Below, piece after piece: positions 7,291 through 58,700 of a DNA stretch of 64,000 bases. The notes under the pieces were generated by a model. That model did no database searches, was not told where the DNA came from, and saw only the letters and a program-made list of their open reading frames with translations. Every line of letters starts with the position of its first letter. The first letter of the stretch is position 1. A program made the position numbers and the translations under genes. The stretch is from Lytechinus pictus (Eukaryota): positions 17,610,001 through 17,674,000 of the forward strand of contig NC_087250.1 of assembly GCF_037042905.1 (NCBI RefSeq), given 5' to 3'.

Positions 7291-7293
7291 AAT

Positions 7294-17107: not shown

Positions 17108-17526
17108 GTATGGTCATGATTAATTTCCATTGGGCAAGGGTTGTCATCAGATGTAGGAGGGACTACTTTGAGCCACTCCAATTGGGGCATGACTGAGAAT
17201 TTTATCTGAAAGCAAGGGAATGTTAAGGGCATATTCAAGCTCCCAGTAAACAATTTTCAACATTCGAAAATTGCCCGGCACCTTGCCACAAGGTTCAGGG
17301 GGGGTGGGGTGAAATTAGCTGCTTTTATTATTTTCAGATCATTTTCTTTGTCAGTGGGGAAATATTTTTGACCAGTAAAGTTAATATACTCTGTACAGGA
17401 AAAAACATGAATCCACTGTAATTTTGTTTATATTAATGATGCAATGTACTTGTTCTCAAACTCCCACCAGTAGGTCATAGTTTCCTAGAAAATTATTCAA
17501 TATATTTTTCTCTATCTGCTTTGCAG

Positions 17527-21728: not shown

Positions 21729-22120
21729 AGATAAATTCCAGTATTGGTAACGATCTCAAAATGACTTTTTACAAAATCTAATATAATGACCACCCAAGTG
21801 TCTGTTTTTATGAATAAAAATATGTGCCAAAGGATTCTGGAAGAAATTGTGTAATTGCTGAGAAATAAGCAAAATAAGCGCGGATTCGGTCACTTCCGTC
21901 GGGTCTTTTTTCCAGCAATAATAATACAGTGTCCCACGTGTGCCTATCTGTGTTGGTGATCTTGAGTGTGAACATTTTTCAGCGTAGATTTCAAGATTTC
22001 ACAAAGTTAAGTTATGTAACTGTACCAGATCTAGATCCTCGATGATATACTGACAATTAAGCCTGGTCTTACAGACTTTCTCATGAAATCAGTGTTTACT
22101 GCAATTACTGGCATTTCTCT
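21729..22120. mobile_element. Kolobok-like MITE (TTAA TSD)
   Basis: TTAA|AGATAAATTCCAGTA..TACTGGCATTTCTCT|TTAA; a decayed relative lies at about 16520-16912. Confidence 0.65.
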
Positions 22121-22323
22121 TTAAGTCACTGGTAAATTACGAATAGCTTTATGAAACACCCACCATGAGTATGATATCAGGGTGCCGTTTCATGAAGATG
22201 TTTGTAAGTTAAGAGTGACTTTAAGAACGACTGGTGATCCTTGTAAATGATATCCATCATTAGTGATTATTTAGCACATAAAAAAGGTTCACCAGCAGTT
22301 CTTACTTCTTAAGTCCTTCTTAA

Positions 22324-22914
22324 AGGTCAAGTCCACCCCAGAAAAATGTTGATTTGAATAAATAGAGAAAAATCGAACTAGCATAACACTGAAAATTTCA
22401 TCAAAATGGATGTAAAATAAGAAGGTTATGACATTTTAAAGTTTCGCTTATTTTCCACATAACAGTGATATGCACAATTCAGTGATAAGCAAATGAGACA
22501 GTCGATGATGTCCCTCACTCACTATTTTGTTTTTTATTGTTTGAATTATACAATATTTCATTTGTTACATATTTGATAATAAGGACCAACTTGATTGAAC
22601 AAGTATTAAACAATGCTAATTCCACAAGTTCAGGGAGGAATTAATTGTTTCACTTGACAATGATGAGAAAATTATAATTTTTTGTAATTTTTATAAAAAA
22701 AATACAAAAGAAATAGTGAGTGGATACGTCACCAGTCTCCTCATTTGCATACCGACCAGGATTTGCATATGACTGTTTTGTGAAATTAAGCAAAACTTTA
22801 AAATGTCATAACTTTCTTATTTTACATCCCATTTTGATGAAATTTTCGGTGTTATGCTTGTTAGATTTTTCTCTTTTTATTCAAATCAAGTTTTTGTTGG
22901 GGTGGACTTGTCCT
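22324..22914. mobile_element. Kolobok-like MITE family A
   Basis: TTAA|AGGTCAAGTCCACCCC..GGGGTGGACTTGTCCT|TTAA; further copies at 41584 and 54743. Confidence 0.85.
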
Positions 22915-25900
22915 TTAACTTACAAACAGCTTTGTGAAACACCCACCCTGGCCCCATCTTACATAGAATTGTGATTGATTTGATCAGTTTCAACTATGGA
23001 AATCCATCCATGTCATAATTCTTTGTAGGAAGTATACACAACACAATATTCCTTTTGAAATGGAAGGGGGATGCTGATTGGTCAAGAAAATGATGCATGC
23101 ATGATTTGAGAAAACACTTAAAACAGACATAGTTCTATTCTAGAATTTGGGTTCCCTGTCTTTTCATAGTTAAGATTAGATCAATTGGATCAATCAAAAC
23201 TCTTCATGAGACGGTTCCCTGTTCTCTTGGCCAGTGAGTTTTTAGCATATGTGACCTACTACCCAAAAGCTACCAATAAGTCGCCAGGTAAGGTCCTGAA
23301 GTGGAATAAAAGAAAAGACACCACTTTTTCGGACTGCTTGGAAGTTTCACTGAGATTACACGGTATGCACATCTCATGCTTGAGTGAACCCCAGACTTCC
23401 AACCTTGTTTTCTCCCGATTTTTTAAAGCTCTTGCTTAATTTCCTCTGCATTCAAACAAGTACTTGTAATGGTTATTGTTGGTCAATTTCAACACATCAT
23501 ATATCATTTGAAAGCTTAGGAAGTGAATTTTCAAGCTCAATAAAAATCTCAATTTTCATTTTGGTCGACTTATTGTTGGTTTTGAGGTGGCAGATCACAT
23601 ATAGACATGACAATATTCTCCATATTCAGCATATCCATGAGTTCGCAAGTTTTTACATTTGCTAACAGTTTCGATAATTATTTACTGTACACCTGTATAA
23701 AAATGGAAATCCTAGAAATGTTGCACTAGCAGAAAAGTGGCATAAATCAGTGCAAATGTCAAATTAGACATTAATATGCATTTCAGTAAGTATGAAGCTG
23801 CAGTTTGCTGATATGCTAATATGATTTATGTTTTCTTTTTTCTCACTAATTGTTGAAATAAGGTGAGAGAACATTTTTTTTTTCATTTTGTATTCAATAT
23901 AAGTTCAATTTTTTTTTTCATTGTTAAAAACGAAAGGCATCAATTTTCAGATTTTTATTTTTTATTTTATTTTGTTTATTTTATTTTATTTATTTATTTT
24001 TTTGTTTGGGGAGTGATATTCTTTGCATGATGTTATTTGTCTATATCAGTGGCAGATCCAGAATTTCTAGGGGTGCAACTATGGCAATTTTCTTAGATTT
24101 AGATATATCAATATCTATGTTCAGTGCTTCTCAAAATACAGGTGGGACATACGTCCCTTGTGTTTTCGCCTGGATCCGCCACTGATCTGCATGAGTTTTG
24201 ATATACACCTTTTCAGACTCGTATCTGGAACGTTACCACTTACTCACTGATGACTCATATTTTCATGTTACATGGAGCCAGATATAATCTCTATTGTGTT
24301 CGCAATGAAGTCCAGGGGCCCGTCCAACAAAGAGTTGCAATTGGTCCTATCAATCGCATCTATGGAAAGCCAGAAAAGTCAACATATTAATGCATGTTTG
24401 TTCAAAATAATTTCTCGATATGAATGAATATCCATAAATTCATTGATTTCTTGACAATTTGGTGTGTTCTCCTTTGTTCACAGGGGGCATTTTGCAAATT
24501 TCCTGTAAAAAAAATTATGACACTGATTAATTGTAACTCTTTTTAAGAAGGGGGCCCAGGAACCTGCCTCACAGAGAGTTGCGATTGATCCAAGGTACCT
24601 CACCTATATGGAACCCCATCATTGACATGTTCGTAAAGGAAATTTGCACAATGCCCTTTGTCAAGGAAGAGAAAGCACACAATTGCAAAGACAATAACGA
24701 ATACATGAATGTACATCATATTTACATGTAGAAGAAAAAAAACCAAACAAACTTGCATTTTAGATGTTGGCATTGTTGGCTTTCCATAGTTGTGGTTGAT
24801 TGGATCAATCACAAATTTTTGCAAGACTGGAGCCTGTAATACAGTGCATAGTGACTGCTCATGTGACTAATTTTTATTTTTTATTGTACATTGTGTTCAA
24901 GGCAGTTGAAAACAAAAAGTTGGTCTTGGATCATTGCTGCCAACTTCAGGGGTGTTGCAAGAAAAGATCTGTAATCGCAAAGATTTGCAACTACAGCAAA
25001 TTGAGTTTTATTGCTTGTTGCAAGATGCACACCATCAAGCAAGAACATATTTGCAATTGATTGCCAGACGTATGATTGATTTTGGACTTGTAATTGAGTG
25101 GTTTCAATTTTGGTGTCGGTGTTAGGTCAATTTTTACATGAATATAACACCAAACATGAAATGAAGATGGTCCTGAAAAGTCACTCACTAGTTGTTGAGA
25201 TGTCAATATTGTGATCTGGATCAGTTTTACAAACTCAAAATAGGTTTTGGAGCTAGGGGAAGCAATCCAAATTCCAACACCAATGCCAAGACCGGACTTG
25301 AAATCACCCATTGCTTGACAAGTTTTTTTGCAACACCCTATTAGTGTTACTGTCCCCAGGAGAGGATTTCACAAAGTGATTTTCACAGAACAACTGTTAT
25401 TAGCTACTGAAATCCTTGCATCTGATTGGCTAGCAGCAACTTTGTCTGTTATGTGGAACCTTCACTCTTGGAATAGGAATGTTTATTCTTGAATTGAAAG
25501 AAAAATATTAAATTGTTCACCATATATTTGGGCCCCGTCTTACAAAGAGTTACGAATGATCCAATCAATCTCAAATGTTTAGAAATCCATCCATACCGTA
25601 ATTTTTTTACAGGAATTTAGCACTATCTCCGTAGTAAACAAATAGTGTTATACTGGATCTTCAAGAGATTGATGATTGTATGAATATACATCATATCTAG
25701 AAATTATTTTGAACAAATTTGCATTTTAGATGTTGATGTTGCTAGCTGTCCATTTAACTCTTTGTAAGATGGGGTTCCTGGTGTATATTTGATAAACCTA
25801 GAATACTCTGCCTATTTTCGTTTAGCTAGGAATGTGGTAGTCCTATATTGCGATTGCAGATGCTGATGGGGTAACCTTATTGAATTAAATGTCTTTTTTT

Positions 25901-25917
25901 TCTCTTTTGGATATCAG

Positions 25918-27012
25918 GCACAGAGCATCATCCAATCTAACGCTGTTGGAACCAATTTCCCAGGAGTAACAGGAGCCAAAGGTATGAAACCTCAGGCGAC
26001 TGTCATTTCCCTCTCACCTAAGCAACAAGGGGTTCAACAGCTTGCCTCACCGACGGCGCAAGATATCAAGGGAGTGCCAAATATCGTGGCGCAACTGACT
26101 GCAGGTGCTTCAAGTACCGGCGCCCAGAAAACCGTAGTTCTGCCGACCAACTTGAAAGTCAATATGCAAAACAAGCAATATAAGATTTTGTACGTGCAGA
26201 AGCCTGGTGCGTCTAAACCTGAATTGTGTCTTCAACCATGCAACACAGATGGTTCAACTGCACCTGGTGGTACTCTTCAAGGTTCGGTGCCTCTGGTATC
26301 TTTGCAGCAGCCTATCCAACCGATCCCTGCCGCTACCTCTGGCAGAAATGTGCAGATTCAAATGTTACCACAGGGTGGGAATAAAATTGTAATGCAGGCT
26401 GTAGGGGGAACCCCACAAGGACTTATGGTGCAAAACACTCAACAGCCGCAAGTGGTACAGAATTTGGTATCACAGAATGTTCTACAGGCGCAAGCGTTGC
26501 AGAATGTGGTGCTTCAGAGTCCTGTAGCGGCACCGCAGGTTGTGAATCCAGCTGCAGGTAGCAATACCAGTGTAGTTACTATGATATCTACTCCGATACC
26601 ACCAGTTCCACCAGTATCAGTCATATCAGCACATTCAGTCCAAATGGCACCTTCCATCCAGGTTCCTTCAGCAGTTAGTCCACTATTGGTAGCACCGCCA
26701 GTGAATCAAACTACCATGCTAGCAGGGAGCCCTTCCAAAGCTGCGCCAAGCCAGATGGTGCACCTCCTTGATTCTGGCATTGTTGGAGCGTCAGGAGCAC
26801 CGACCATGGCGCCAGCTGGCGCACCATCATTAATACCATCATTGGCACCGCCCATGCTTTCCCCTGTCACTCAGCAAGTGACACATTTGGGGCCATCAGA
26901 TAATGTTATCTTACAGGCGGCGTCGGCTTCTGGGTTACTTTTACAGGCACCGGAACCGTCAATGCAGCAAATTGCAGTGAAGGGATTGTTTGAACCAAGT
27001 GGACAGTGTTGA
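25918..27012 (+). CDS. BRD10: Q/P/V-rich terminal exon, probably the alternative last exon of the BRD10-like gene
   Basis: Pyrimidine tract plus atcag| acceptor in phase 0; open to TGA at 27012; composition continues that of 18700-19320. Confidence 0.7.
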   Translation, partial: AQSIIQSNAVGTNFPGVTGAKGMKPQATVISLSPKQQGVQQLASPTAQDIKGVPNIVAQLTAGASSTGAQKTVVLPTNLKVNMQNKQYKILYVQKPGASKPELCLQPCNTDGSTAPGGTLQGSVPLVSLQQPIQPIPAATSGRNVQIQMLPQGGNKIVMQAVGGTPQGLMVQNTQQPQVVQNLVSQNVLQAQALQNVVLQSPVAAPQVVNPAAGSNTSVVTMISTPIPPVPPVSVISAHSVQMAPSIQVPSAVSPLLVAPPVNQTTMLAGSPSKAAPSQMVHLLDSGIVGASGAPTMAPAGAPSLIPSLAPPMLSPVTQQVTHLGPSDNVILQAASASGLLLQAPEPSMQQIAVKGLFEPSGQC

Positions 27013-32996: not shown

Positions 32997-33707
32997 AGGA
33001 AACCAAAACCCAAGAAGAGAAGTAATCTTATTGGAAAGAGTAAAATGAGAGGAACAATTTAAAAAAATTTCATCAAAATCGGTTATAAAATAAGCAAGTT
33101 AAAGTCTTGCACTTTCTATGGGGATCCTCAAATTGGCAAACGTGCTTTGAGGCGCGATAGCTCAGGGGTTTCGGTCACCCGGGTTCGATTCCCAAGTGGT
33201 GCACTAGTGCCCTTTGGTAAGGCATTTATCCTCATTACCAGGTCCCTCGGAGAGGACCTTAAGCCGTTGGTCCACTGGTTGCTTGCTCACAGGCATTCAT
33301 GCTTTCTTAGCAGTCAGGTAAAACAACCTCGGTATAACAAAATGGCTTATTTTTTGGACAACTCTCCATTTGTTTTGTACACAAATTTTCCTCATCTTTC
33401 AAACTGCATCTTGCCTCCTCAGCGTAACATAATTCATGGGAAAATATAATTCACACCACATATGTCAAGGTCAGGAGATGATGATGTGAAATATGTCAAA
33501 TAAAGGGGAAAATCTGAATGATTGTGTACGAAACAAATGGAGAGTTGTCCACAAAATCAGCCATTTTGAAGCACATTTGCCAATTTGAGGATCCCCATAG
33601 AAAGTACAAGACTTTTTAAACGTCCATAACTTGCTTATTTCATAACCAATTTTGTTATTTTTACTCTACCCAATAAGATTGCTTCTCTTCTTGGGTTTTG
33701 GTTTCCT
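32997..33707. mobile_element. Kolobok-like MITE family C carrying a SINE insertion
   Basis: TTAA|AGGAAACCAAAACCCAAGAAGAGAAG..CTTCTCTTCTTGGGTTTTGGTTTCCT|TTAA. Confidence 0.8.
33149..33337 (+). mobile_element. tRNA-derived SINE
   Basis: GGCGCGATAGCTCAG A box, GGGTTCGATTCCC B box; interrupts the left arm of the MITE. Confidence 0.75.
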
Positions 33708-34919: not shown

Positions 34920-35046
34920 TTAGAACTTGGCAAACTGCTTCTTTGCTGATCCTGGAGCCTGTGTCACCTTCAGGACGTTGAATCGAACGGTCTTACTGAG
35001 AGGGCGACATTCACCAACGGTCACGATATCTCCGATTTTGGTGTCC
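34920..35046 (-). CDS. RPS11: 40S ribosomal protein S11 (uS17), exon 4
   Basis: [40 protein letters not shown] on minus at 34880-34885. Confidence 0.97.
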
Positions 35047-35494
35047 CTGCGAGGAAGAACACGAGAAGAAAAACAGTGAATATGTATTCAGGCTTGCCGG
35101 GCTAAGCTTGGGATAAATATGATTATGTACATGTAACCTAGCCTACGACTAAGTCAAATCATTTAGGATAACAATCGTTTTCACTCTGGAGAAATTCAAC
35201 TAAAAATATAATGTGTGTCCTTCATCATGTGGTTTACAAGACTGCGTCTTGAGCAAATATTCATCTTATGGAAGGTGGATTTGTCTGCTGGAAGTGGCAA
35301 TAGACCTCAGATGACAATGTGATATGTGCTATATTTAAGTGGGATATTATTATTTTGATTTTTGCTATTACCACTAAGATCACTATACATTCTTGACAGA
35401 GGTATCCAGCTGTTTGATCAAAATTAATCAAGATAATCTGTACAGGCTTTTTCTCCCAGTGTGGTGATTTTCTTGGCATGAGTACAAGGGGAAG

Positions 35495-35582
35495 ATTGCA
35501 TCAGTGAAGTGCTTAAAAGCAATGTCAGCATCCCTCCTTGGGAGGGAATATGAAGACCATCGTGAGAAACATCATGTGCAAT
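35495..35582 (-). ncRNA. SNORD35: Box C/D snoRNA U35-like, RPS11 intron 3
   Basis: ATTGCA terminal stem, box C ATGATG, guide TCTCACGATGGTCT as in human U35 (recalled), box D CTGA. Confidence 0.88.
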
Positions 35583-35960
35583 ATTCCCATCTCATACTAG
35601 CCAATGAACGTTTCTTCAAGCGTAAATAAAATCAAGATAAAAACAACGGTTTAACTCAGTTGAACTGGCCTTGGTAACTTTACGTGACATCTTTCATCAT
35701 GTAATTTTTTACTATATAGAAAAATTAACTCTTTCTTTTCATTCTCACTAAAAACAAAATTGTCATCATCCAACAGTAAGTCAGATTATAATAGTAATGA
35801 CAAAACAAATTAAATATCTTCTTTACTTTTCATTCCTTTACTTGAATCTTTAACTTGGTTTATGGATTACTTATCCATTTCCTTCATTCATCTTTTGATT
35901 ACACAGCAATTTATTGCCTTATTCTTCTTTGTAAGATGGGGGGGGGGGGTGTCGGCTTAC

Positions 35961-36166
35961 CTGAAGCAGGGTGAGAGATGGACAGACATGGTCTTGTGCC
36001 TCTTCTCAAATCGGTTGTATTTCTTGATGTAATGGAGGTAGTCGCGCCTGATGACAATCGTCCTCTGCATCTTCATCTTGGTGATGACGCCGGTCAAGAT
36101 ACGGCCGCGGATGTGGACGTTGCCGGTGAACGGGCACTTCTTGTCGATGTAGTGACCATCGCGAGC
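35961..36166 (-). CDS. RPS11: RPS11 exon 3
   Basis: [56 protein letters not shown]; ag/gt borders. Confidence 0.97.
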
Positions 36167-36248
36167 CTGCGAAAGAAAACACGAAATGTCCAGTGTTAGT
36201 CAAGAAATCATGCTTAAATGTGTTTCATCGGGATACCATGCATTCCTG

Positions 36249-39200
36249 GGGGGTGTTTCATCAATATTTTCGTCCGACAACTGTCAGCGCTGACTAAAAT
36301 TGTCAGCGCTGACAATTTAGTCAGCGCTGACAAAAATTCGTTTCATCAAACTCTCGGAGCTTCTCTGACTATTGTCAGAGAATTTTTATTTTACAAATCG
36401 TCTTGAACGAGGTTCGCTGACTAATTAGGCCACGCCCACTCACAAAGTCGTGAAAAAGATGTAAAATTGGTTGATGTTTTCGCCACGACGATTCGAAATG
36501 AAACGAAGACATGAGAAGAAGCGAAGGTCCTCGTAGAGGTGAATGAGGATTTTACCGTAAGTAAAACCCTTCAAAATGTCGTTCATATTGTATGTAAGGT
36601 GATTGAATTATTCGTTGTGCGTGATTATCAAATGAATTACAAGAAAAGAGGATCTTCTGGCAGGACCCCTGTCGATACGATCGGTGAACTTGACAGTACA
36701 AAATCCAGTCTAGTCCCATACCCGTGTTTCTGTGTCTGTAGAACTATCTCAGGTCCAAACTAACGACACGGCTCACGGCTGTCACGTTTTTATGATCCGC
36801 ACATGGCTGCAATTTTATAAATTTTGCAAAGAGAATTCTTTATATTGTTCTACCTTTATGTCATTCTATGTTGCAAATCATATTTTTTCATTTCCTTTGG
36901 TTTTGTAATAATTTTGTTGCTCGGTGTGGTCGGAGATTATCATTGATCACCAGGCAAACCAGCGTGTGCAATTGTAAATGTACACATATCCAATGGGGCC
37001 ATCCTAATTCTGTGTCACAGAAATTGGAATTGAACAGGAGCTAAATCACATGGTAATAGTGTGAGTGGTAAATTTGTAAAGTGGATGTTCTCAACTATTA
37101 ATGTAGGCTTAGCCTTAGCAAGTCACAAGTCGAATGAAGTGAAGGCTCTCGACAGCTGGCGAGGATTCGGGGGGGGGGGGGTGATGCGATTGTGGCAGAG
37201 GTGCGTTCACACCCAATAAAAATTAAAATCTAGATATAAAAAAATTATTAGATCTAACTAAGTTTTAAATAGTGCAACCGGCCCGTGGCCGTACTGGTAT
37301 AGCTTATAGATCTAGATCTATCTTAAATTATCTTTGACTTTGCGCACCCAAGTGAAATGATCGAGCCATTGCATAGCTCCCTTTTAAAAAAAAGATTGAT
37401 CGTCCAATTTGGGGGAGAGGAAATAATGCTCTTCATTTGTGTGCGATTATGAAGTTTGTTTTGCTTTTATTTTTCTAAGTCAATTTTTTAGACAAATTAC
37501 TATTTAGCATGAATCTGCAATAGCATCGGTGTTATTGGGGTAAATAAATTAAATTATTGTTGATAATGTCTCTTAATCTATTTTTTGAAAAATACTGTTG
37601 TACCACATAAAGTTAGAGTCTAGTCATACCTAACCTTAAATAGCATGTAAAGGTTAAAGGTCTCTTCATTAGAAAAAAATATAGGAGAATATGGAATGGA
37701 TCTCATCAATCCCAAGTATTTTTCTGCCTTGAATCTCATATTAAAGTTCCATTGAACAAAGGTCACAGTCCAGAAATAGTTGACAGTTTGATGGGGATGC
37801 AATTTGCTGCAGTTACGAATTAGGAGCCTATTCATATTTTTTATTAATTTGATCGTGGCTTTTAACCGGCAAGGTATCCAAGCGCTATTGAGTTAGAAAA
37901 AAACTTTTATTTTTATTTTTGAATTAAAAAAAAAAATTATTGAAAAAGCTGTTTTACTATTTTGTATAGTTAATGTGTTAATTACCGTCTTGTTTATAAT
38001 CAAGTGAAAATTATATGAATTAACAAGGATAAATTGTTGACCGATTGTTGGTAAATTCTATAAATTTCAGGATAATAAAAGAAGAAAAATGATTGGTATA
38101 TTCGATCATTCCCCTTTATGAAATGTCAACAATATTCATTGAAAGTGCAGTATTTTTCAATGATCACTGTAAATCTACATATTTTCTTTGCTACATGTAT
38201 AACAATGTGATATTATTAATATTTTAATTTCAGACTATGGACAGTTGAACAGTATGCAGAAGAAGACGGATCTGGAACTAGAAAGCAAGGCTCTGACTGG
38301 TCTACTACAGCAAGGAATGTGCCAGCGGCCAATCTGATGAACATGTGACAGAAGATTTGGCAATGGGTGAAGAAATACTGAGATTGAAATGCAACCACAG
38401 GTAACATGTAGACTAGTAAAATGCGATAATGATTAAAAAATAATGAAGGATATTGTTTTGGTTGCAGAATGTAAAATCATAAAAACCCACATCAATGACA
38501 ATGAAATCGGACTGTGACCAGATTTTCTATTTAAAGTCAGTTTGAAATGCAAACATTACATAAGCATGAAAGACATAATAGATTCAATATATTTTGCATG
38601 TTAGCTGCAGGGTCAGCAGAACGGTTTTGAAAGTGAGGGGGCTGAGCCGAAAGTGGGGGGGGGGGGGGCTGACCAATGCAAAAAAGCACAAGCAGATGGT
38701 CAATTTTACATTTTTGTACATGGTTTTGGAAAACAGTGCGGGGGCTGAAGAATATGAAATGACCATCTGGTTACGATTTTTTGCATGGTCAGCCCGTTCA
38801 CTGTAAAAACCGTTCCGCTGACCCTGCAGCTAACATGCACCCCCCCCCCCCCCGCCGGTTTCCGGAGCCCCTGCTCTCACCCCTCAATCCATTTAGCACT
38901 ACTTGCTCATGTGTATGTACATACAAGCTACATTGTGAGGAATAATTTCACTTTTTAAGTTTCTCAGCCAGAGCATATGTCATTTACTATTGTTTGTATT
39001 TTTTATTAACATAATAAAAACTTGAACCCTTTATTTACCCCCTTCTATATGAAACCTGGTAATCAAAAGATGTTTTATTTCCTGTTTTTAGACATGTACA
39101 TATACATGTGAGAAGAAATACCAGATTATGGCAAATATTTTAATTAGTTATTTCAATACTATTTTTCCTTCAGGTGGAGGCTTCAACCAAACTTTTCAGA

Positions 39201-41326
39201 CAGACATGAGATACAAAGTTACACAAGTATAAATGGTTGAAGGTTTAGGAGAGCCAGACAAGAAGGCAGGAAATGTGATGTCACTTGTAAGTTAAAACAC
39301 ACTTATTTATGACTGCCTCACTTTGGCGAAGAAAGTAAAGTCACATTAAAAAAAATATTAAATTACTGGTACTGCTCTCTTCTTTATTTGGTCTACTCAA
39401 ATATTTGAAAACAATGACATCTATAAGTGCTTAGATGCTTAATGGATTAATGGTGATATTTATTGGACAGTTGTAAAACAACCAATATCAATCAATGCTA
39501 GATGGTGTGACTTGCTTTCTATTGCCAAAGTAGTAAATGAATGTTCCATTGTTCTGCATTCCTATTAGACCCCCCCCCCCCCCCCCCCGCCCCATCACCA
39601 TCTGCTTTGTATGGGAGTAACACTGGAAGATTACCCCCCCCCCCAAAAAAAAAAAAAAAAAAAAAAAAAAATTATATCTCTTGTAGGCCTGTATAAATGT
39701 AATGCCTACAAAAGCAGTCATGAAACCTCATTAATTCAAATGATCTTGGTAGGGGGGGGGGTGCCTCAGGATCTTGCCTGTTGATTGTGCACTCGCTTCA
39801 GAAATCATGCTGCTGTTCCTGATGGTTTTTTTTAATATTTAATATGATAACATGACTCTTGCATGAAATCAGCATTTGGCTCAAGAAATAAAGACCAAAT
39901 GTGATAATTTTGGATTTTGACTCCCTTTCTTTGGTAAACCAATGAGAAAAACCCAAGTCATTAAAATCAATTGTGTATAAAAAAAGAGGAAATTTTAATC
40001 ATTTTCTTATGCATTTCTTTGTTATTAACTTTTTTGTTTTCATTGTTTAATAAGGCTTTGGTGACAATATTTTAACCATTTAGAACTTAAAGTTCTTATT
40101 TCAAACATTAGAAATAAAAAAATGTAAGTTTTAACAATGATAATTAAATTAAGAATAAATGACTGATATCAATAATGATGGAAATTGATATCTTTATTAA
40201 TAAAATATCACATGCTCTATAAATTAAATCCATTTCAGTTACTTCAATGAACATGGACAGCAGCAGGAGCAACAACAGCATCAGCAGCTGAAACTACAAC
40301 TGCAGTAATAGATGCAACAACCACACCGACAACATCAACAGCAGCAGGAGCTCCAACAACCATGCAGAGAACATCGGGCGCAACATAAATAACTTCATCA
40401 AGAGATGCAACAACCACAGTGGTAAACATCAACAGCAGTAGCAACAACGACAGTAGAAACAAAGCCAACAGCAAGGATTCTAACAAGCAATCATACAAGC
40501 AACAACACAAGCGACAACATCAATAGATGCATCAGGAGATGCAACAGCCACACTCGTAAACAGCAGCAGTAGCAGCGATGACAACAGCAACCACACAGGC
40601 AACACCTTGAGCAACATCAGTAGCAAAAATAACTAATTGCACCAGGAGATGCAACAACCACACCCACAACACCAAGAGCAGCAAAAACAAACAGCAATTC
40701 CAGCAATCACGATGACAACAGCAGCAGCAACACCAACAACACTAATGAACATTGAAAAAACTTGTACAAAAGTCAATGAGGTCGCATTTTTCAGACATTA
40801 TCAGACATTATTGATTAAAAAATGCACAATGATTTATTTGGGTTAAAGAAAATTATGTTTGAAAAAATGTGTACATTTGAAGATGTTTCCTATGTATTGA
40901 TTGATATAATATAGTTTTAAAGATGAAAATATTATTCTTGAAATGTCTACTTTTTATTTGTCATTGACTAAAAGTAAATACATTTTCTTTGAATTTTCTC
41001 AATGAAATGAAAAATAAGCAATTTATTAAAATGTTATATTCAAAATCAACTGAAATTGATCGATTTTAGCTGCAAAGGCCCTCAAAAGGCTGATTAGTCG
41101 GTGAAAATTGGATTAGTCGGTGAAAATAAGTTTTGTCGGTAGGTGAAGGCCACCGACCAAATTAGTCGGTGGTTTCCAATAATTTGTCGGAGAAAATCAC
41201 CGACAAATTTTCATGAAATGGAATTTAGTCGGTGATGGCAAAATTGTCGGTGAAAATGAAATTAGTCGGTGAAAATCACATTTAGTCGGAGAAAACCACC
41301 GACTAATTGTTTGATGAAACGCCCCC
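36249..41326. mobile_element. 5.1-kb PIF/Harbinger-type non-autonomous element in RPS11 intron 2
   Basis: TIR GGGGGTGTTTCATCAA / TTGATGAAACGCCCCC; TSD CTG (36246-36248, 41327-41329); subterminal arrays GTCAGCGCTGAC and TTAGTCGGTGAAAA. Confidence 0.8.
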
Positions 41327-41384
41327 CTGATTTATGATAAGGTTGGGTTTACCTATTGGTGTCAATTTGAGGATTGTTACAACG

Positions 41385-41477
41385 TAGATTGCATCAGTGA
41401 AGTGCTTTAAAGCAATGTCAGCATCCCTACTTGGAGGGAATATGAAGACCATCGTGAGAAACATCATGTGCAATCTA
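41385..41477 (-). ncRNA. SNORD35: Box C/D snoRNA U35-like, RPS11 intron 2
   Basis: Near-identical to 35495-35582; 9-bp terminal stem TAGATTGCA/TGCAATCTA. Confidence 0.88.
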
Positions 41478-41583
41478 ACACTTCCAAGTGACACTCTATT
41501 ATCTTTGGGACATTTCATTTTCAAGAGGGGGGTGGGGGAGGCACTAACTGGTGTGATCACCTGTTAAACAAATATTTCATTAA

Positions 41584-42133
41584 AGAACAAGTCCACCCCG
41601 AAAAATAATTGATTTGAATAAAAAGAGAAAAATCCAACAAGCATAACACTGAAAATTTCATCAAAATCGGATGTAAAATAAGTTATGATATTTTAAAATT
41701 TCGTTTAATTTAACAAAACAGTTATATGCACATCCTGGCTGGTATGCAAATGAGGAGACTGATGACATCATCCACTCACTATTTCTTTTGTATTTTATTA
41801 TATGAGATATAAATATTCTAATTTTCTCCTCATTGTCAAGTGAAACCGTAATTAATTCCTCCCTGAACATGTGGAATTAGCCTTGTTTAATACTATATGG
41901 TTCAGTCAGGTCAGTTCCTATGGTCAAATCTGTAAAAATATTGTATAATTCAAACAATAAAAAACAAAAGAAATAGTGAGTGATGGATATCATCATTGTG
42001 AAAAATAAGCGAAACTTTAAATTGCCATAACTTTCTTATTTTACATCCGATTTTGATGAAATTTTCAGTGTTATGTGAGTTTGATTTTTCTCTACTTATT
42101 CAAATCAACATTTTGCTGGGGTGGACTTGACCT
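41584..42133. mobile_element. Kolobok-like MITE family A
   Basis: TTAA-flanked; same TIR as 22324-22914. Confidence 0.82.
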
Positions 42134-42325
42134 TTAAGTTCATCAGATACTTGGTACTACATGAGGGGGGGGGGGGGGAATCCCCTTAAAGAAAATATTT
42201 AAGAGATAAAGATGACCCTAGTGCAGCTCTCCACATATCTTACCCTAACATGTCATCCATAGTACCCCCCCATGAGTGAACCTTGCTTAGCCCCTGCCCC
42301 TGAAGAGAGTGTGTTGATGACATAC

Positions 42326-42448
42326 CTCAGATGGAGTCTTGAACCCTAGACCAACATTGCGGACGAGTCTGTTGGCCTTCTTGTTGGAGGCCAATAGCCG
42401 CTTGTTGTTCTGGAACACGGTGGGTTGTTTCTGGTACGCCCTCTCCGT
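42326..42448 (-). CDS. RPS11: RPS11 exon 2
   Basis: [30 protein letters not shown]; ag/gt borders. Confidence 0.97.
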
Positions 42449-46899: not shown

Positions 46900-47832
46900 T
46901 TTGTTTTATGATTATTACTCATTATGATTATAGACGTCGTCATTGTGATAATTACCATGATCATTATCATTATTGCTATACCATAATTATCGTTATTATC
47001 ATTAGTATCGTCATCATCGTCCATGAGCATGCATAACAATAATTAGCATCATTATATCATGAGCATCATTAGCATAATATTAAAGTTAAAAAATATCATT
47101 TAGTGTCTATCATTATCATTATCACTCTTATTATCATCATCATTATAAGCTTTTTTATCATTATTATGATTATCATTAACACTGTCATCACTTTTATTGT
47201 GATCATCATTATAAGCTTTTATCATCACTATTATAATTAATCAATTATCATAACATTGGCACTATCATTAACATAATCATCATCATCATCATCATCACCA
47301 CCACCACCACCACCATCACGAAATTAACATATAGTTGTCAAAATTACCATTAAGGGATATCATTATTATTATCATCACTTTCATTATCATTATTATCACT
47401 ATCACCATAATAATTTCCATTATTATCATTATCATCATTAGTAACATTAGATGACCCCCATCATCATAGGTACTGTTATTATCATCATCATTATCATCAT
47501 CATCATAATCATCATCAATTTCAATATTATCATCATCATCACTTTCATTATTATCATTAAATCTTTATCATCTTCATCGTCATCATCATAATCATCATCA
47601 CTTTTAATATTATCATCATCATCATTACTTTCATTATTGTCATTATAATCATCATCTTCATCATCATCACCATCATCATCATCTTCATCATTATCATCAT
47701 CATCATCATCATCATCTTCATCATCATCATCAATATCATCATCAACATCGTCATCACCCTTCTCCTCCTCCTCATCATCATCACTTTTATCATTAACCTC
47801 ATCATCATTATAGCATCATCATCATTATTATC
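46900..47832. repeat. Degenerate (ATC/ATT)n microsatellite
   Basis: Long run of CAT/TAT triplets. Confidence 0.9.
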
Positions 47833-47851
47833 AGATGCCCCCACCTCCACT

Positions 47852-48040
47852 GGTGGGGGCATCTGGGCGTTGTGGGCGTGCGCCTGTAATCCAAGCTATG
47901 TGGGGAAGTTACAAATTGATGCAGAGATTCGAGGTTCGATCCCTGGTCACGTCTTTCGGATGGTGACGTTAAAGGTCGGTCCCAGACGTAAATAATCATA
48001 TCTGATTGATACACGTCTGACAAAACTCAAATACACACAT
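47852..48040 (+). mobile_element. SINE with 7SL (Alu-domain)-like head
   Basis: CTGGGCGTTGTGGGCGTGCGCCTGTAATCCAAGCTA at 47863-47898, B box GGTTCGATCCC at 47933-47943, (CA)n tail, candidate TSD CCACC(T/C)CCACT. Confidence 0.65.
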
Positions 48041-48331
48041 CCACCCCCACTCCACCCCCCCCCTTGTCAACACCACTGCATCTCCTCCAATCTTCATGAT
48101 CGATAGTGAAATACTATCGGTCATTTTGACACCCGGCTAATAAACGCCGAGAATCACTTTCGAGACAGAACGCGTCAATTATATCGGGGATGCGGTCACT
48201 TTTGTGTGAGGCTGGAAGGAAAGCGGATCTTCAATCATAATTAATATGAAATGAACAGGCCTATATCATTTAGATACCGGTTATAGCAGTATTTGATAAG
48301 AATCTGCGGAACGTAAGATCTCGATTGCCGT

Positions 48332-48384
48332 CAGTTACCGCTTATTTCACCTCTGCCGGAGACATCAATTATTATATCCGTTTG
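48332..48384 (+). other. Candidate non-coding first exon of the MSMB-like gene
   Basis: TCAGTT initiator-like motif near 48331 and strong donor TTG|GTAAGT; the ATG exon at 59797 has an acceptor that needs an upstream exon. Confidence 0.35.
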
Positions 48385-51024
48385 GTAAGTCTTCTTTTTA
48401 ATTCATTTATCAATATTGATAATTCTTTTGCTTTGAATTTCGAAAAAAAGGTGGTTTCTAGCAAAAAGTAGATTACGCTGTACATGTACATTTCTAATTT
48501 ATAGGCTATTTTTCGCAATCTATCTATTTTATCCGAAGTAATTTGTTAACTTTATTTTATAGAAAAATACAAGAAGAAGAAGAAGAAACTCATGCTAGGG
48601 AATACTTTTATTAAGTGAAAAGCAGTGCTTTCTGCAAATGTAAAACCATTTCCACGCAGTATTCATTATCACATTTTAATAATGCAATTACGTAACAATC
48701 ATGGTCACAAGTCATGATGTAAGTCAGTTTCCCCCTTTGTGTGCATGTGTAGCACTAGGATGTAGTTTTGGGGGAATTTACACTATCTTCGAATGGTTGA
48801 TTTTTTTCTTCTTTTTCACTCCCTTTAATATATGGGTCTTTTACCAGTGGTTTTCAGAGACGGATTTGAAACACGTATTCTTTTTTCTTATTTTTTTTCT
48901 CGGGGGGGGGGGGGGGGTGCCTGAATCGATATTACGTCAACATAAATTAGTTATGCACTGTAGTTATTTTTGATCCGGTTGACAGAGTATAGTTCAATAC
49001 TCAAAACACCAAGTCACACATTACCATAAATACCGAACCCACTGACGTAAGTTGGGGGGGGGGGGGGTGCCCCCCAAGAAAAATCCATGAATGTGGAGAA
49101 AGAAAAAAAAAAGTGTTGAAATATGATATCATTTTCTAATGATATGTTATCAAAATCTATCACCAAACCAGTTCTTCGTCAAATTTTTGCTCGCTCGTTT
49201 TGCTGGTTCGATAGTTTTCCTCTTTATGCCATGTTTGGCCCCTCAAAGATTTTGGATCATTGCCCCACTGATTGAACCATATCAAATGAACCGTTTAACT
49301 CTGAAATAATGAGAATTTGGGTACTACTTCACGAAAGTTGCCTAACACTGAGAAGTTGTCATTTCTCGACTACAATTAGAAACCTGATCGAGCTTCTCTG
49401 CCAATCACAACCGAGGAAAAGTGATGAGATCTGACAACTTTTTCAGACGAATTGTTGGTGAAATGCTCCCTTGACGATCCAATAATTAGGCCTACTAATT
49501 ATCTCTGGAATCATCATTATTGTTTGTAATCTGCCCTGACGTTTTAATTGGTTCTTAAGAACAAGATGTAATTAAAGACTAAGCAGATCATTCATCCGTG
49601 ACGTCATAATTACGTCGCACTAATGGCAAAAGACCGCAAGACATACGGCTGCACGTAATTAACAAACAAAAGATACAAAATAGGATGAAGCACTAGCGTA
49701 CCAAGGGGGCGGGGGAGGGCAGGGGGGCAGACTGCCCCCCCCTGACGAGTCACAACTCATGCAGGGGACGTATTCCTGCCCCCCCTGACGAGTCACAACT
49801 GTTACAATGGACGTGCCCCCCTTTTCTGGTATGAAATCTTTTTTTTTTTTGTTGAAGACTTTTTTTTTTTGCTTGTCAATTTTTGTTCTGGTAAGAAATC
49901 CTTTATTTGTGGTTGAAGACCCTTTTTTTTTTGCTTGTCAAATTTTTTCGCGGACGAAATATCCTCCAAGAAATTTGCCCCCTTCTGGAAAATCCTAGGT
50001 ACGTAAGTGGGATGAAGGGTGGGGGCCAGGGGCGTAGACAACGGGGGGGATGAGGGGGATGCATCCCCCCCACCTCACAAGGTGGGGGGGATGGCATGTA
50101 CAATCATCCCCCCCAGGTTTTGGGGAATGATATTTGGTTACTTAATAAGTCATAATGATGATAATAATAGTAATAATAATAATGATAACAATTATAATAT
50201 TAATAATAATAATAATTATGATGATGATAATAATAATCCTCATCATGATTGTAATTGTGTTTATTGTTATTAGCCGTTATGGTTCCGATTTCTTCACAAA
50301 CTTACAAAGCAGTATTGTTACTCCATGGATCATAGTGATACTGTTTATGTTTTTTGTATCTGTATGTTAATGAGCCGCCAGCCAATATCCATCTATGGAT
50401 ACTATGCCTGTTTCTTTGAGGTAAAAAAAAAGCATAGTATGTACGTATTCATTATGCTTTATAATGAACAGACATATTGTTATTTGTTTGTTGTTTATGT
50501 GTTCTATTCACAAATGGCCACATAGGCTGTTTTCATTCATAACCACATACCCATATCAAGACAACAAAGACTATAGCTGCGTGTACACAGTTGACATTGG
50601 TTTTTTTTCTGAAGAGGTGTAACAGCAAAATTCACAGAGCTAGAGATAAATAAATACGTAGTGTGGTTCAATATGCAATACTATGTGTCAGTCCATTCTG
50701 TATTCGTATGCCACGATGTGTAGATCTTGTCGATGTATGTCTGTCCATTCAAGGCGTAGTATGTGTGTGGTGCGCGCACCCGTGTGTGTGTGTGTGTGTG
50801 GGTGTGTGTGTGTGTGTGAGTATGTGTGTGTGTGTGCGTGCGCGCTTGTGTGTGTTATTTTACCTCATTAAGTATGCATCAGATTGCACGATTTCAAGTT
50901 CAAAATTGCAAAAGCTCCCTACCGTGGGAGGGGGGACACCCCCCTCCCACATCCTCCCCCCGCTCGGTCGCTTCGCTCCCTCGCTCGGGCGCTTTGCGCC
51001 CTCACTTGCGTTGGCAGCCCAGTC

Positions 51025-51460
51025 GGTTCCATGACAATTGCTCCGCCGACATCTGCTCCGCCGACAATTGCTACGCAAAATACGACAACTGCTCCGCCGA
51101 CAATTGCTCCGGACAGTTGCTCCGCCGACAGTTGCTCCGTCGACACTTGCTCCGCCGATATTTGCTCCGTCGACACTTGCTCCGCCGATATTTGCTCCGT
51201 CGACATCTGCTCCGCCGATATTTGCTCCGCCGACAGTTGCTCCGCCGATAATTGCTCCGCCGACATCTGCTCCGATTTTACGACAATTGCTCCGCGACAA
51301 TTGCTCCGCCGATATTTGCTCCGCCGATAATTGCTCCGCCGATAATTGCTCCGCCGATAATTGCTCCGCCGAAAATTGCTCCAATTATACGACATTTGCT
51401 TCACGACAATTGATCCGCAGTCTATTGCTCCGCCGTCATGTGCTCCGATAATACAATTGC
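51025..51460 (+). repeat. 15-bp tandem array (GACANTTGCTCCGCC)n, left arm of a foldback element
   Basis: Directly visible; inverted copy at 55350-55779. Confidence 0.9.
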
Positions 51461-53529: not shown

Positions 53530-54742
53530 CCCTTCTGCTTTCCAGCAACTTATACACCATACATTTGCGCCCCCCTCTCTCTCCCTCTTTCTCGTTTTGT
53601 TCTTTCACACTATTAATTTTCATTGGTTACCGCTTGATTTATTGTATATTTATCAGCATTACAATTGTTAATATTTTTATCAATATTTTTTAATACGTCT
53701 TGGGCCTTATCTACCCTTGCACCTTTTTTCTTTAAATTTGTTTCAAACGAAAGCATGATCATCACTGGCGTACAGATAGGGGAGGGGCGTGCTAGGGGTC
53801 ACGGATCCCCCCCCCCATTCTCCCTACCAATGAAAGAAAAGAATAAAGGAAAGGAAACTAAATGTCATCCTTGTCTGGCCCCCTCCATTTTTTTTGTTGG
53901 CTCATTACGCTACTGGTGAGTTACTATAAGACGAGACTTCGGTTGTATTTTTTTCTATTCTGTGCAATAGCAACAATATAAATATATTTTAATAAATGAA
54001 TATATGTATGTATCTCTCTCATAACGTATAAACAAATAATGTTGTTTCTAAAAGACAATAATACACATTATACACATATATATACCAGTAATAATATAGT
54101 TACATATTCATGAAACCCAATAACGCATCGCACTGAATTTATAATGCGAGCACGAAGCACGAGATGTTATTAACCTGGAAAGGGGAAATTTATACGCATT
54201 TTTTTTATTGTAAACATAAAGCATACCTATTGAATTTCACCTGGAGCAAATATCTCCACTTCGGAGCATATTTCGCCAGAGCGATTTTGACGCTAAGAAT
54301 TTTTTTTTGTCCCGTCATGATAATTACATGAACACGCGTATTTTTTTTTCATTTTAATCACCAGGCACGAAATAAAACTTAAACAAATGCCCCCCAAGGA
54401 ATAAGAATTAAGAATATCTATCCCTCCTTTGTGCTTATCCCTTTTTTCTATTTCTTTCTATGTTATGTATCAGGGGCCGCGGAACCGGGGGCTGGGGGCT
54501 TCAGCCCCCCCCTCCCCCTTTTTTTCCAAAACCGTGTACAAAAACGTAAAAATGACCATATGATTGTGATTTTTAGCATAGTCAGCCCCCACTTTGAAAA
54601 CCGTTCCGCGGCCCCTGTTTATGTCATGTAATATATCAAATTTACTTTGCAATATATATATTATAATATACACATTTGTAAATTGACGTCTTCATCCTGT
54701 GCTACAATATTGTTATGCGCATGAAAGTACGAATTAATTTAA

Positions 54743-55344
54743 AGGTCAAGTCCACCCCAGACAAATGTTGATTTGAATAAATAGAGAAAAATCAGACTAG
54801 CGTAACGCTGAAAATTTCATCAAAATCGGATGTAAAATAAGAAAGTAATAGCATTTTAAAGTTTCGCTTATTTTTCACAAAACAGTGATATGCACAACTC
54901 AGTGAAATGCAAATGAGTCAGTCGATGATGTCCATCACTCACTATCCCTTTTGTTTTTTATTGTTTGAATTATACAATATTTCATTTTTTACAAATTTGA
55001 AAATACGGACCAACTTGACTGAACCATATAATATTAAACAATGCTAATTCCACGTGTTCAGGGGGGATTAATCGTTGTTTTACTTGGCAATGAGGAGAAA
55101 ATTAGAATATTTCATATTTCACATAATAAAATACAAAAGAAATAGTGAGTGGATGACATCATCAGTCTTCTCATTTGCATACCAACCAGGATGTGCATAT
55201 AACTGTTTTGTGAAATTAGGCGAAACTTTAAAATGTCATAACTTTCTTATTTTACATCCGATTTTGATGAAATTTTCAGTGTTATGCTTGTTGGATTTTT
55301 CTCTTTTTATTCAAATCAATTTTTGGTTGGGGTGGACTTGTCCT
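54743..55344. mobile_element. Kolobok-like MITE family A
   Basis: TTAA-flanked; same TIR as 22324-22914. Confidence 0.85.
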
Positions 55345-55349
55345 TTAAA

Positions 55350-55779
55350 TATCGCAATATCGGAGCAATTTACGGCGGAGCAGATGTCGGCGGAGCAAAC
55401 ATTGACGGAGCAGATATCGGCGGAGCAATTGTCGCGATGCAATTTTCGGCGGAGCAGATGTCGGCGGAGCAATTATCGGCGGAGCAGATGTCGGCGGAGC
55501 AAAAATCGGCGGAGCAATTGTCGTATAATCGGAGCAGATGTCGGCGGAGCAATTTTCGGCGGAGCAGATGTCGGCGGAGCAAATATCGGCGGAGCATATG
55601 TCGACGGAGCAAATATCGGCGGAGCAAGTGTCGACGGAGCAACTGTCGGCGGAGCAAGTGTCGACGGAGCAACTGTCGGCGGAGCAACTGTCCGGAGCAA
55701 TTGTCGGCGGAGCAGTTGTCGTATTTTGCGTAGCAGTTGTCAGCGGAGCAGATGTCGGCGGAGCAATTGTCGGGTCACC
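55350..55779 (-). repeat. 15-bp tandem array, right arm of the foldback element
   Basis: Reverse complement of 51025-51460, including the irregular unit GCTACGCAAAATACGAC. Confidence 0.9.
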
Positions 55780-58700
55780 GACATCCCCCCCAGGTGTACG
55801 AACCTGTCTACGCCACTGGTGGGGGCAGTTTTGTTTAACCCCTCCATTCTATATTATTAGTTATTATACACAAGTTTCCCTTAACCCTGTGCAAAGAGGA
55901 AGTGTTCCCCCAACAATAAAAAAATGATTTTGTTATAAAGACAAAAACAATCAATCTTAACGATGAAAATTCAATTAAAATCGGATGTCAAATAAGAAAG
56001 TTCTGAGGGTTTTTTTAAGTTTCGCTCTATTATTTCACATGATATGCAAATCCTGGTTAGTTTACAAATTATGAGGGAACCAGTGAAATTTACACAATCG
56101 TTTTTCATTACTCTATTTGAAACATAATGTGTATATTTTTTTTTCGTTTTTCTACTCATTATAATTGATGTCAGTTAATTTTCCGTTCAAATTTCACTTA
56201 TGACAATTGATTTTAGTTTCATCTTCTTTTATTCATTTTTTGTCCCGGATTCGGTAAAATAATATAATTTTGATTATCTTTTAATTTCGATGAAAGCGTG
56301 CGTATTATCGGTGTATGTGACCCATTAATTACAGTCGCACATCCGACTCGAAGAGGTGGGCGAAATATTAACCGCGATTTCATCGAAGCGTAGTAGGGTG
56401 AATGCTTGCTCGTGCGTGAAGATAATATAATAAATCGACACTTTCTACGTATTTGAGGGGGATGGGTGTTCCAAAGGGAGAAGGCATCTCATCGCTTGTC
56501 AAATTTCTTTAATTTTCCTCCCATATTTTAATCCCATTCATTTCCTGAATTCTTTTATTTATCGTTTTGGGACAGATCAGTGGGGGAATTCGTAAAATAG
56601 AAGGGGTGGTTTAAGAGAATGAGCTAAAGAAGCCTGATTGATTTTGATGAGGATGACGAGATTGGGAGAAAAAAGTTGAATTCTTGATGAGACATCGAGA
56701 GAGGGAGAGAGAAAGGGGGAGGGGAGGGGGAGAGGGGTTGGGATGGGAGAGGGCTTAAGGGGAAAGTCCATCCTGATTTCAACTTTGTTGCAATAAAAAA
56801 TAGAAAAACAAAATTAAGTTTTGACGAAAATCCACTCAAGAAGCGAATTACCGAATAATTTTATGACGTCACATGCGAGCATCTCTTATAATGTCACACT
56901 TAAAAAAACCCAGAAGATTTATATATTTTGAAAAGAAGATTTCAAAGAAAAATAACAGAATTATTCTGCAAATTGCTAAAACAGTAAAATTTCTGCAATT
57001 TAACAGAACAGGTCTGTTGAAAATAGATGAAAACCAAGTTTTATTACAGGGAATTTGTAAGGTTTCAGACACCAAATATTGATAATTTCTGTAAGTTTAC
57101 ACAATGCAGCAAGTTATAGGTGTTCTCGAGGCCCTTCTGTGGTTATGTGTAGTGTTTGCGTGTGTGTAGTTTGCCATCAGACATATCATTTCATTCACAC
57201 TTTGATAATCTACGTATAATGAATGGGAAAAATAGTTTTAATCATTACGAATCGACAAAGTGGGATGTTCTCGGATTTACAATGCCTGATGACATAAGTA
57301 TATGGGGCAACTGCTCTCACATTATATGACGTCACACGAATAAAACCTGTAAACATTCACAAACTACGTCTTTTTCGTAAAACCTTCAGCAATATTTACT
57401 CTCTAATTTGTCTATTTTTATCAGAACAAACTAATCATGAGGGCAAATAAATTTCTCATTAAAAGGAGGTGAGATTGCAAAGACCTCTAGATCAGTAAAA
57501 CTGAATATTTTTTTCTGTTTTGAATAATAAATTGCACAAAATATCGTTTCTCCCAAGTGGGAGTCTCTCCCTGATACTGAAATTGATATGATGACGTTTA
57601 TGCCATAATTTTCATTCTATTTTCACATCCTAAAGGTGGAAATAGAATTCATCGTAGGCAGGGGATAAAATATTAATAGGAAAAATGATAAATGCGTAAC
57701 TGAGAAGTTGGATGTATAGGGTGTTCCAAAGATGCGACTGGGGATCTAATAAATCACGGAAGTAGAAAATGGATGTAACTTGATTAGAATAATCTTAAAC
57801 TTGCACACTGCAAGTGTTGGTTTAACACCAACCCGGAATCTATATATGTCCACACCAGAGAAGTGTTAAACAACACCAGTTTATTTTTGGTCTAACACCA
57901 GATAGGTGTTTATACATCACCAATTAGGCCTAATATTAAAACAGCATAGGTTTGATTCCATAGATTCCGGGCTAGTGGTATATCAACACCGGAATTTTTG
58001 CAGTGTATGTTACTATTTCCCCCAAACTTTCCAATCTACATAATATGACCTGCATGTCTTGAGTCCTGTGAACAATGTATGCCTACAATTTAAAGTTTAG
58101 GTCTAATGTATACTTTTGAAAATCACGGTCAACCAGAGCATGCGTAAAAACATAAATATACCCATGATTATTCAAGACATCTACAATTACATGTTATCTC
58201 AACCATTTTTTTATATTGAAATTTGGGTTTGACATTATATGGATAAAAACTGATTTACGAAGAGAATTAATGGTTTAATGTGATAAATTAGGAATTTAAG
58301 CTTGTTTTTAAAACGTATCACAGCTTATATTGGCAGCTCTTATTATAATTTTATTTTGTCTTGAGGACATTGTAGTACTAACCGAGGAGCCGCGGGACGC
58401 TCAATGATTAAGCATATCGATGCGTTCATATTTTGTGGCATGTATTTATTACTTTGCTGCCTTGTTTAATATTTAATTTTTTTTTTGGGGGGATACAGGT
58501 GATATTTTTTCCCGTATTTTTTCTAATAAATTTTTATACGATTTCTACATACCCGGTAGTGAAACTAATGAGCCAGGACGCTTAATGGTAAAGGTACCAC
58601 AGAAAAAAGTTAAAATATAATGTTTATATATCTAAACATAGCAGCATCATTTTATTTTCGATTTGGGGACACTGTGACTCGTGATCGTGTTTTAAACTAT

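Follow-up and report, generated by a model that had tools for sequence, protein, structure and literature searches.

The short element at positions 47863-48039 (+) of the window, by which we mean the whole 64-kb stretch analysed here, is one copy of a many-copy sea urchin SINE with a 7SL-derived head. The copy proper measures 177 nt and is single within the window, and with many different flanks around the family it is a SINE by size and dispersal in the sense of SINEBase (below 1 kb, interspersed; PMC3531059, in extract). A preliminary description of this DNA had proposed a multi-copy SINE built as a head/core/tail chimera, with a 7SL-derived head and in an invertebrate, and this is borne out by the mapping of sequencing runs, by Rfam and by comparison with a hagfish SINE and with sister elements; the strings that it quoted were all located (the 36-nt head at 47863-47898, the UGU at 47885-47887 and an 18-nt core string at 47956-47973). 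The start that it gave, 47852, was wrong and has to be moved to 47863, because 47852-47862 is the arm of an inverted repeat with the upstream flank (Table 1). Private to the window copy are an extra G at 47874, an A at 47927 and a T at 47940, the last two being mostly G elsewhere.

Table 1. Parts of the SINE copy and of its immediate surroundings, in window coordinates.
Feature	Position	Strand	Remarks
Left copy of candidate 11-bp target-site duplication	47841-47851	+	10/11 identical to 48041-48051; C-rich, weak alone
5'-junction filler, 11 nt	47852-47862	+	Inverted copy of 47835-47845; the hairpin arm enters the first 3 SINE bases
7SL-derived head, 5' Alu domain (7SL ~2 to ~46)	47863-47909	+	Rfam and hagfish likeness
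A-box position of the 7SL internal promoter	47866-47875	+	8/10 identical by eye to hagfish 7SL box A (PMC7245038); putative function
UGU turn between helices 3 and 4	47885-47887	+	Aligns to UGU of the Rfam consensus
Linker	47910-47932	+	Possible remnant of an older head; 7-nt tandem duplication before the B box
B box, tRNA T-loop type	47933-47943	+	Opens the part common to other-headed sister SINEs
Short Deu-like core	47946-47987	+	Predicted hairpin 47946-47967, pairs kept in 4 sequences
3' stem-loop, likely LINE-recognition signal (putative role)	47983-48019	+	Predicted fold
A/CA-rich tail, 3' edge of the family	48020-48039	+	159 X9 contigs and 1,250 X22 reads leave at 48039
Right copy of candidate target-site duplication	48041-48051	+	Near repeat of 47841-47851
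First downstream TTTT, possible Pol III stop (putative use)	48124-48127	+	Transcript would be ~260 nt; no X22 reads on the flank

The likeness of the head to 7SL was found in two ways. Against the 4,227 families of Rfam, the stretch 47863-47915, cropped after the fact, gave Metazoa_SRP as the best of three matches (15.7 bits, E 0.0069, model positions 1-50), far below the gathering score of 70 bits, with the first 47 nt of the element corresponding to positions 1-46 of the model. The Rfam match to SRP appears on cropped stretches only: SRP is absent among the 22 matches of 47700-48200 at E<=10, and the whole window at the gathering threshold returns two SNORD35 and no SRP. Independently of Rfam, the head is by eye identical to that of the hagfish SINE1-1_EBu at 27/29 positions once the extra G at 47874 is set aside, with an identical 18-nt run at 47875-47892 (PMC7245038, supplement), for which 2e-7 occurrences are expected in the window. 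This match begins at the first bases (position 1-2) of both elements, and the extra G is left out in nine contigs that make up 1,433 of a depth of 1,891.

Only the 5' end of 7SL is involved. A 7SL (SRP) RNA gene, with its ~300 nt, its S domain and at least 70 bits, was considered and is ruled out by a match of 15.7 bits over 47 nt. The S domain is indeed absent, as had been claimed: the SRP match ends by model position 50 and no 7SL 3' end follows it, nor was the 7SL 3' strand found by Rfam on 47905-47950 or 47700-48200. The term 'Alu/B1-like' therefore overstated the likeness, a 5' Alu domain of ~46 nt being present and the 7SL 3' strand lacking. With a match that spans 47 nt, the family also falls short of a SINEBase threshold (60% identity to tRNA, 5S or 7SL over at least 60 nt; PMC3531059, in extract), which could explain why screens miss it.

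The rest of the element is found behind other heads. A metagenome scan returned four loci, three of which were aligned (L001:500-683, L003:530-690 and L004:170-370). The remaining locus (L002), matching 23/24 nt only, and three bacterial loci from the pattern scan, matching only 21-22 nt of the pattern, were dropped as chance; the exact-pattern scans gave nothing else in viral contigs or prokaryotic genomes. From B box to tail, 83 (L001), 90 (L003) and 89 (L004) of 100 columns are identical to the window. Their heads are identical to that of the window in 23/66, 26/56 and 25/74 columns, respectively, and the 7SL head fits them no better than shuffles do (p 0.27-0.85). They look tRNA-like by eye, with A-box-like and B-box-like motifs, and Rfam at E<=10 gives no tRNA in them. 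A further head is found in X16, a run labelled sea urchin metagenome, which has no depth over 47861-47920 and in which 20 contigs with another head join at 47932-47933. In these marine metagenome contigs (L001, L003, L004 and X16), one body and tail, 83-90% conserved in the loci, stands behind four different heads. The sister set forms a small superfamily in which it is the head that is exchanged and not the tail.

This arrangement bears on how the parts behind the head are to be read. The B box reported previously, a GTTCGA-type motif, is present at 47933-47943, although it is not of 7SL origin and belongs to the part common to the other-headed sisters. Upstream of it, the linker matches the L004 head at 9/10 positions (shuffle p 0.036), a weak result as one of three tests, and 7 nt are left out at 47924 in 178/1,434 reads. 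The resemblance of the core to conserved SINE cores is real and concerns the Deu domain, but just its first 28-40 nt: 23/28 columns are identical by eye to the Deu row of AmnSINE1_HS (supplement figure S4), the match is confined to these first 28 columns, and the remainder of the ~130-140 nt of the full Deu domain is absent. To the Meta domain (66 bp), whose consensus is given in the same figure, the core shows no likeness by eye. In the 3' stem-loop, 13/13 pairs are kept in three of four sequences and 11/13 in L001; there is no compensatory change in these four sequences, so that the stem-loop is without covariation support. No match to the 3' end of a partner LINE was found within the window or in the viral and prokaryotic collections. 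Finally, the (CA)n tail exists as an A/CA-rich end at 48020-48039, its CA run being short here (3-4 units) and longer in other copies.

Because everything from the B box to the tail recurs in the sisters with other heads in front, a piece of 7SL was probably grafted onto an older SINE; the direction of this head swap is suggested by the variety of the other heads, and not by a tree. The reading that we favour, and hold with reasonable confidence, is that the 7SL 5' Alu domain was grafted onto an older, probably tRNA-headed SINE, and that the product is an RNA to which SRP9/14 would bind and which a LINE enzyme would copy. In such a process, a LINE reverse transcriptase would have moved from the RNA of the older SINE to 7SL RNA as its template, near 7SL position 46, replacing the half of the tRNA that bears the A box. 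Template switching is also the process to which 5S/partial-tRNA hybrid heads have been ascribed (PMC4824008, in extract). For transcription by Pol III the hybrid would rely on the A box of 7SL together with the tRNA-type B box of the older SINE, and the first 46 nt would fold as the three-way Alu 5' domain and bind SRP9/14. This binding would bring the SINE RNA to ribosomes making LINE ORF2 protein, and a CR1/L2-type LINE would read the 3' stem-loop and the CA tail for target-primed reverse transcription. In SRP RNA the UGU turn is a contact of SRP9/14 (PMC8137916, in extract). For a 46-nt 5' Alu domain, SRP9/14 binding has been shown along with ~86% of Alu retrotransposition in HeLa cells, in a system of L1 and a poly(A) tail rather than one in which the LINE recognises a 3' stem-loop (PMC11760393, in extract).

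The fold of the head can be compared with that expected of an Alu 5' domain. Folded in isolation, the 47 nt of the head form helices 3 and 4 in the SRP register (pair probabilities 0.77-0.95), and all nine pairs at that register are allowed by 69 of 100,000 shuffles. Helix 3 carries a U-U mismatch. The closing helix reads C2-G45 and U3-A44 against C-G and c3-g44 in the Rfam consensus, and an A that precedes the head in three loose-end consensuses could pair with U46 (g1-c46 in the consensus), so that the closing pairs have changed on both sides. The probability of this closing helix is 0.0 in the 2D model, the folding energy of the head is ordinary against shuffles (z 0.11), and in the full-length minimum-energy fold the partner of the head is the 3' part. 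There is drift in loop 4: the base aligned with the C of the consensus 'aGcUaC' is T in the window copy and C in 81/635 reads, and 2 nt of the loop are missing in 229/639 reads. This drift may weaken the loop-loop pseudoknot.

It could be argued from these data that the 7SL head serves as a promoter part (its A box) only, with no SRP9/14 role and with a decaying Alu fold. A loop 4 that varies among copies, an Alu domain that misses its 3' strand and a head whose fold energy is not above that of shuffles would all be expected in this case, and the conserved stem-loop of the tail would suit a stringent LINE without ribosome targeting. We nevertheless consider this explanation rather unlikely. 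The border of the graft is the natural end of the 5' Alu domain and does not lie just past the A box (position 15). Also against it are UGU, helices 3 and 4 and the GC of loop 4, which have no variant at or above 10% (among mapped reads, which are those at least 80% alike), and closing pairs that differ from the consensus on both sides.

Its build sets this family apart from the 7SL-derived SINEs on record. Those have been described as an exceptional event, known in three vertebrate lineages only (PMC13023118, in extract), and they keep both 7SL ends around an internal deletion (PMC7245038, PMC13023118, both in extract). The hagfish SINE1-1_EBu (Ebu1-1, Eptatretus burgeri; PMC7245038) is alike in its 7SL 5' end (the 27/29 by eye given above), in the lack of an S domain, in its birth (a probable one for the urchin element) from the fusion of 7SL to an older SINE with a tRNA head, in a non-L1 partner (putative in the urchin), in its microsatellite tail, and in a copy number of the same order if the urchin family has ~10^3 copies. 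Of 7SL it retains more, namely 96 nt of the 5' end together with the B box and the 3' strand, and its tail is a bipartite RTE one with (AAC)n, whereas the urchin element keeps 46 nt and has the B box of the older SINE, a short Deu-like core, a CA tail and an echinoderm host. Alu, B1 and Tu of Euarchontoglires and Urop of the shrew mole likewise have the 5' Alu domain with helices 3/4 and UGU at their 5' end and the A box in the same place; in the available text, they are described with an internal deletion that keeps both 7SL ends, with poly(A) tails and with the use of L1 (PMC7245038, PMC13023118). The urchin element, in contrast, has no 7SL 3' part and no poly(A), and is mostly non-7SL.

Two other kinds of element are worth comparing. 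The engineered SA46/AY46 has the same borders as the urchin head, those of a minimal domain that binds SRP9/14 and supports retrotransposition, and SA46 differs in having been built in the laboratory and in its use of a CMV promoter, L1 ORF2p and poly(A), while the urchin element is natural and has a drifted loop 4 (PMC11760393, in extract). DeuSINEs, such as AmnSINE1 and the urchin SINE2-3_SP, resemble it in having a small-RNA piece before a partial tRNA head and in the start of the Deu-like core; however, their added piece is 5S and that of the urchin element is 7SL, and the latter has only ~28-40 of the ~130-140 nt of Deu (PMC4758252, PMC4824008 and PMC3747384, as far as their accessible parts go). 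The urchin element is thus a 7SL-headed SINE outside the build of Alu, B1, Urop and Ebu1-1, and judging from its sequence it would work like Alu at its head. As to earlier claims from invertebrates, an Alu-like SINE is said to have been proposed in amphioxus in 2006.

It is possible, and we propose it tentatively, that this family is the first invertebrate 7SL-derived SINE and a fourth independent origin, reached through a novel graft of just the 46-nt SRP9/14-binding domain onto an existing SINE rather than through an internal deletion of 7SL. No echinoderm 7SL SINE was found in the literature, as searched through titles and abstract openings, with subscription papers mostly outside the scope. 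The element could be as we describe it and already be in Repbase or Dfam, a possibility that concerns its novelty and not its mechanism. Several SINEs of sea urchins are in Repbase, among them SINE2-3_SP with its Deu domain (PMC4824008, PMC5804259, PMC3747384, in extract), and the body and tail may well belong to a named SINE2_SP family. On the other side, the Strongylocentrotus purpuratus families listed in the accessible part of PMC3747384 have tRNA heads, and the portion available of PMC13023118 (February 2026) names supraprimates, hagfish and shrew mole only. An entry that includes the 7SL head appears unlikely to us.

It is very improbable that the head is instead a diverged tRNA half, or a GC-rich sequence that resembles 7SL by chance. 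Such a reading can point to a weak Rfam score found after cropping, to a B box of tRNA type and to sister elements with tRNA-like heads, but chance would then have to account for the 18-nt exact run and for the 27/29 identity, from position 1-2, to a head known to derive from 7SL. Moreover, the head is unlike the sister heads, neither ARAGORN nor Rfam gives a tRNA match for it, and ARAGORN counts 0 tRNAs in the window; in this respect too the preliminary description, for which a head better explained by a tRNA would have been fatal, holds.

The family was sized by mapping contigs or reads from four of the 24 listed runs (X9, X1, X16 and X22), leaving out X17-X20 (small share). Far from being single-copy, the element is matched by 5,202 contigs of X9, a DNA run of what we call organism B, with sharp edges and varied flanks. 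The summed depth is 0.69-1.19 million over 47891-48040, 0.11 million at 47861-47890 and 16-45 over 48071-48520. At the 3' edge (48039) 159 contigs run out of the element, and at 47875 there are 43 that run into it, the flank agreement being 0.41 and 0.54, respectively; such low agreement implies different flanks and hence an interspersed family. The entering consensus runs back to the head start, so that head and body travel together. The depth ratio of element to flank, 22,000-65,000, is not a copy number, and it falls to ~700-2,100 if, through overlap of short contigs, a base is counted up to 31x. The family has at least hundreds of copies, and likely ~10^3. Some of them lie head to tail: several X9 contigs run from the tail of one copy straight into the head of another (48037-48039 to 47875-47897), perhaps because the younger copy inserted into the CA tail of the older. 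X1, from organism A, gave 105 contigs, four of them with the head and a flank of their own. Its flank contig differs from the window at 1/264 positions and that of X9 at 16 in ~280 bases, which places the family in two differently labelled, related organisms. No 7SL reads turned up in the mapping, which carries no information given how short the stretch in common is. A unique chimeric retrocopy, an error of assembly or contaminating human Alu DNA, to which a single copy in the 64-kb window and an untidy junction might lend themselves, has a negligible probability and was refuted by the run mapping: the head is fused to the same body in no fewer than 43 X9 contigs, in four X1 contigs and at another X22 locus, all with their own flanks. 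There is also no 7SL or Alu match after position 46, and the neighbourhood is sea urchin.

RNA of the family was seen in X22, one rRNA-depleted RNA run of which ~6% was read. There are 2,651 reads on the element and none on the flanks, and the RNA hence derives from other copies and not from the window locus; the reads include a head-body joint at another locus with its own flank. First mates are 9-16 times commoner on the minus than on the plus strand, and minus-strand first mates correspond to sense RNA in most stranded libraries. At the 5' side 123 molecules end at 47875, a point at which the extra G of the window copy would clip reads that start at the head, and at the 3' side 1,250 reads run past the tail. 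This pattern fits Pol III transcripts with 3' read-through, the putative A and B boxes being recognised as motifs. Agreement among the 1,250 run-on reads is 0.59, which suggests that a few loci may dominate the RNA, and 67% of reads continue into unlike sequence; many of them could be passengers in longer RNAs.

The untidy 5' junction of the window copy has a likely explanation. A perfect 14-bp inverted repeat (47832-47845/47852-47865, 6-nt spacer) spans it, depth from other copies is almost nil upstream of 47861, and the three bases preceding 47835-47845 complement the first three bases of the head. It is likely that the end of the cDNA invaded the flank at this 3-nt microhomology and was extended by 11 nt before it was joined, which would account for both the hairpin at the junction and the missing first A. 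The 11-bp target-site duplication that had been proposed, examined in the window copy alone, stands in so far as 10/11 bases are identical; it is, however, a C-rich, low-complexity sequence that does not abut the head, being offset from it by the 11-nt filler.

The remainder of the window contains other features. Directly 3' of the SINE, 48080-48390 is a CpG-rich single-copy stretch, ~94% identical in organism B, with a GTAAG donor-like end at 48385; it may be a promoter or first exon, and X22 has no reads there. Exons of RPS11 (uS17) lie on the minus strand near 42287-42448, 35957-36199 and 34920-35087, within 34920-42448. The 69 aa of the exon at 35960-36166 (-) are 100% identical to the Lytechinus variegatus protein among the best 120 of 624 matches, and the same exon is 91% identical to Amphiura (brittle star) and Acanthaster (sea star) and 87-91% to vertebrates among the matches listed. 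As far as a single conserved exon can tell, the window thus comes from a sea urchin that is Lytechinus or near to it. Two SNORD35 copies, 97% identical to each other, sit in separate RPS11 introns (41385-41472 and 35492-35580). An LTR retrotransposon occupies 861-8803; its two 1,510-bp LTRs (861-2370 and 7294-8803) are 100% identical, and the insertion is therefore very recent. Its ORF at 2991-6818 (-) encodes SCAN, integrase and then a short reverse transcriptase piece that looks incomplete. An integrase placed before the reverse transcriptase recalls Gmr1-like Gypsy elements. Two other SINE-like elements, ~33140-33330 (+) and ~9450-9690 (-), have tRNA-type B boxes at 33182 (+) and 9626 (-) and a body unrelated to that of the 7SL-headed SINE. 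Two inverted copies of a 15-bp-period array at 51022-51460 and 55358-55782 probably belong to a repeat family, and a ~600-bp, MITE-like repeat that is partly its own reverse complement is present in three copies (22320-22918, 41580-42143 and 54733-55348). Large exons at 13391-27012 (+), with open frames of 458, 896 and 381 aa, encode a low-complexity protein with AT-hook-like GRPR motifs; it has no Pfam match, and in a protein search the 896-aa exon had just two homologues, both unnamed.

The build of this SINE bears on an open question, namely why the Alu domain makes a good SINE. That both 7SL ends are kept in the known cases has been taken as a sign that the deletion borders matter. The urchin family keeps the 5' domain alone, which is the piece found sufficient in cell culture in 2024 (PMC11760393, in extract). 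If the tentative reading of a first invertebrate case and a fourth origin is true, nature selected the same minimal module that deletion work in HeLa cells defined, and targeting to ribosomes through SRP9/14 would be a portable booster, also with a LINE that recognises a 3' stem-loop. The sister SINEs, in which body and tail are the same and the heads differ, would then be a natural control for the SRP9/14 model outside the L1/poly(A) setting, in a host that is used as a laboratory model. An echinoderm case widens the range of 7SL-derived SINEs beyond vertebrates, to invertebrates.
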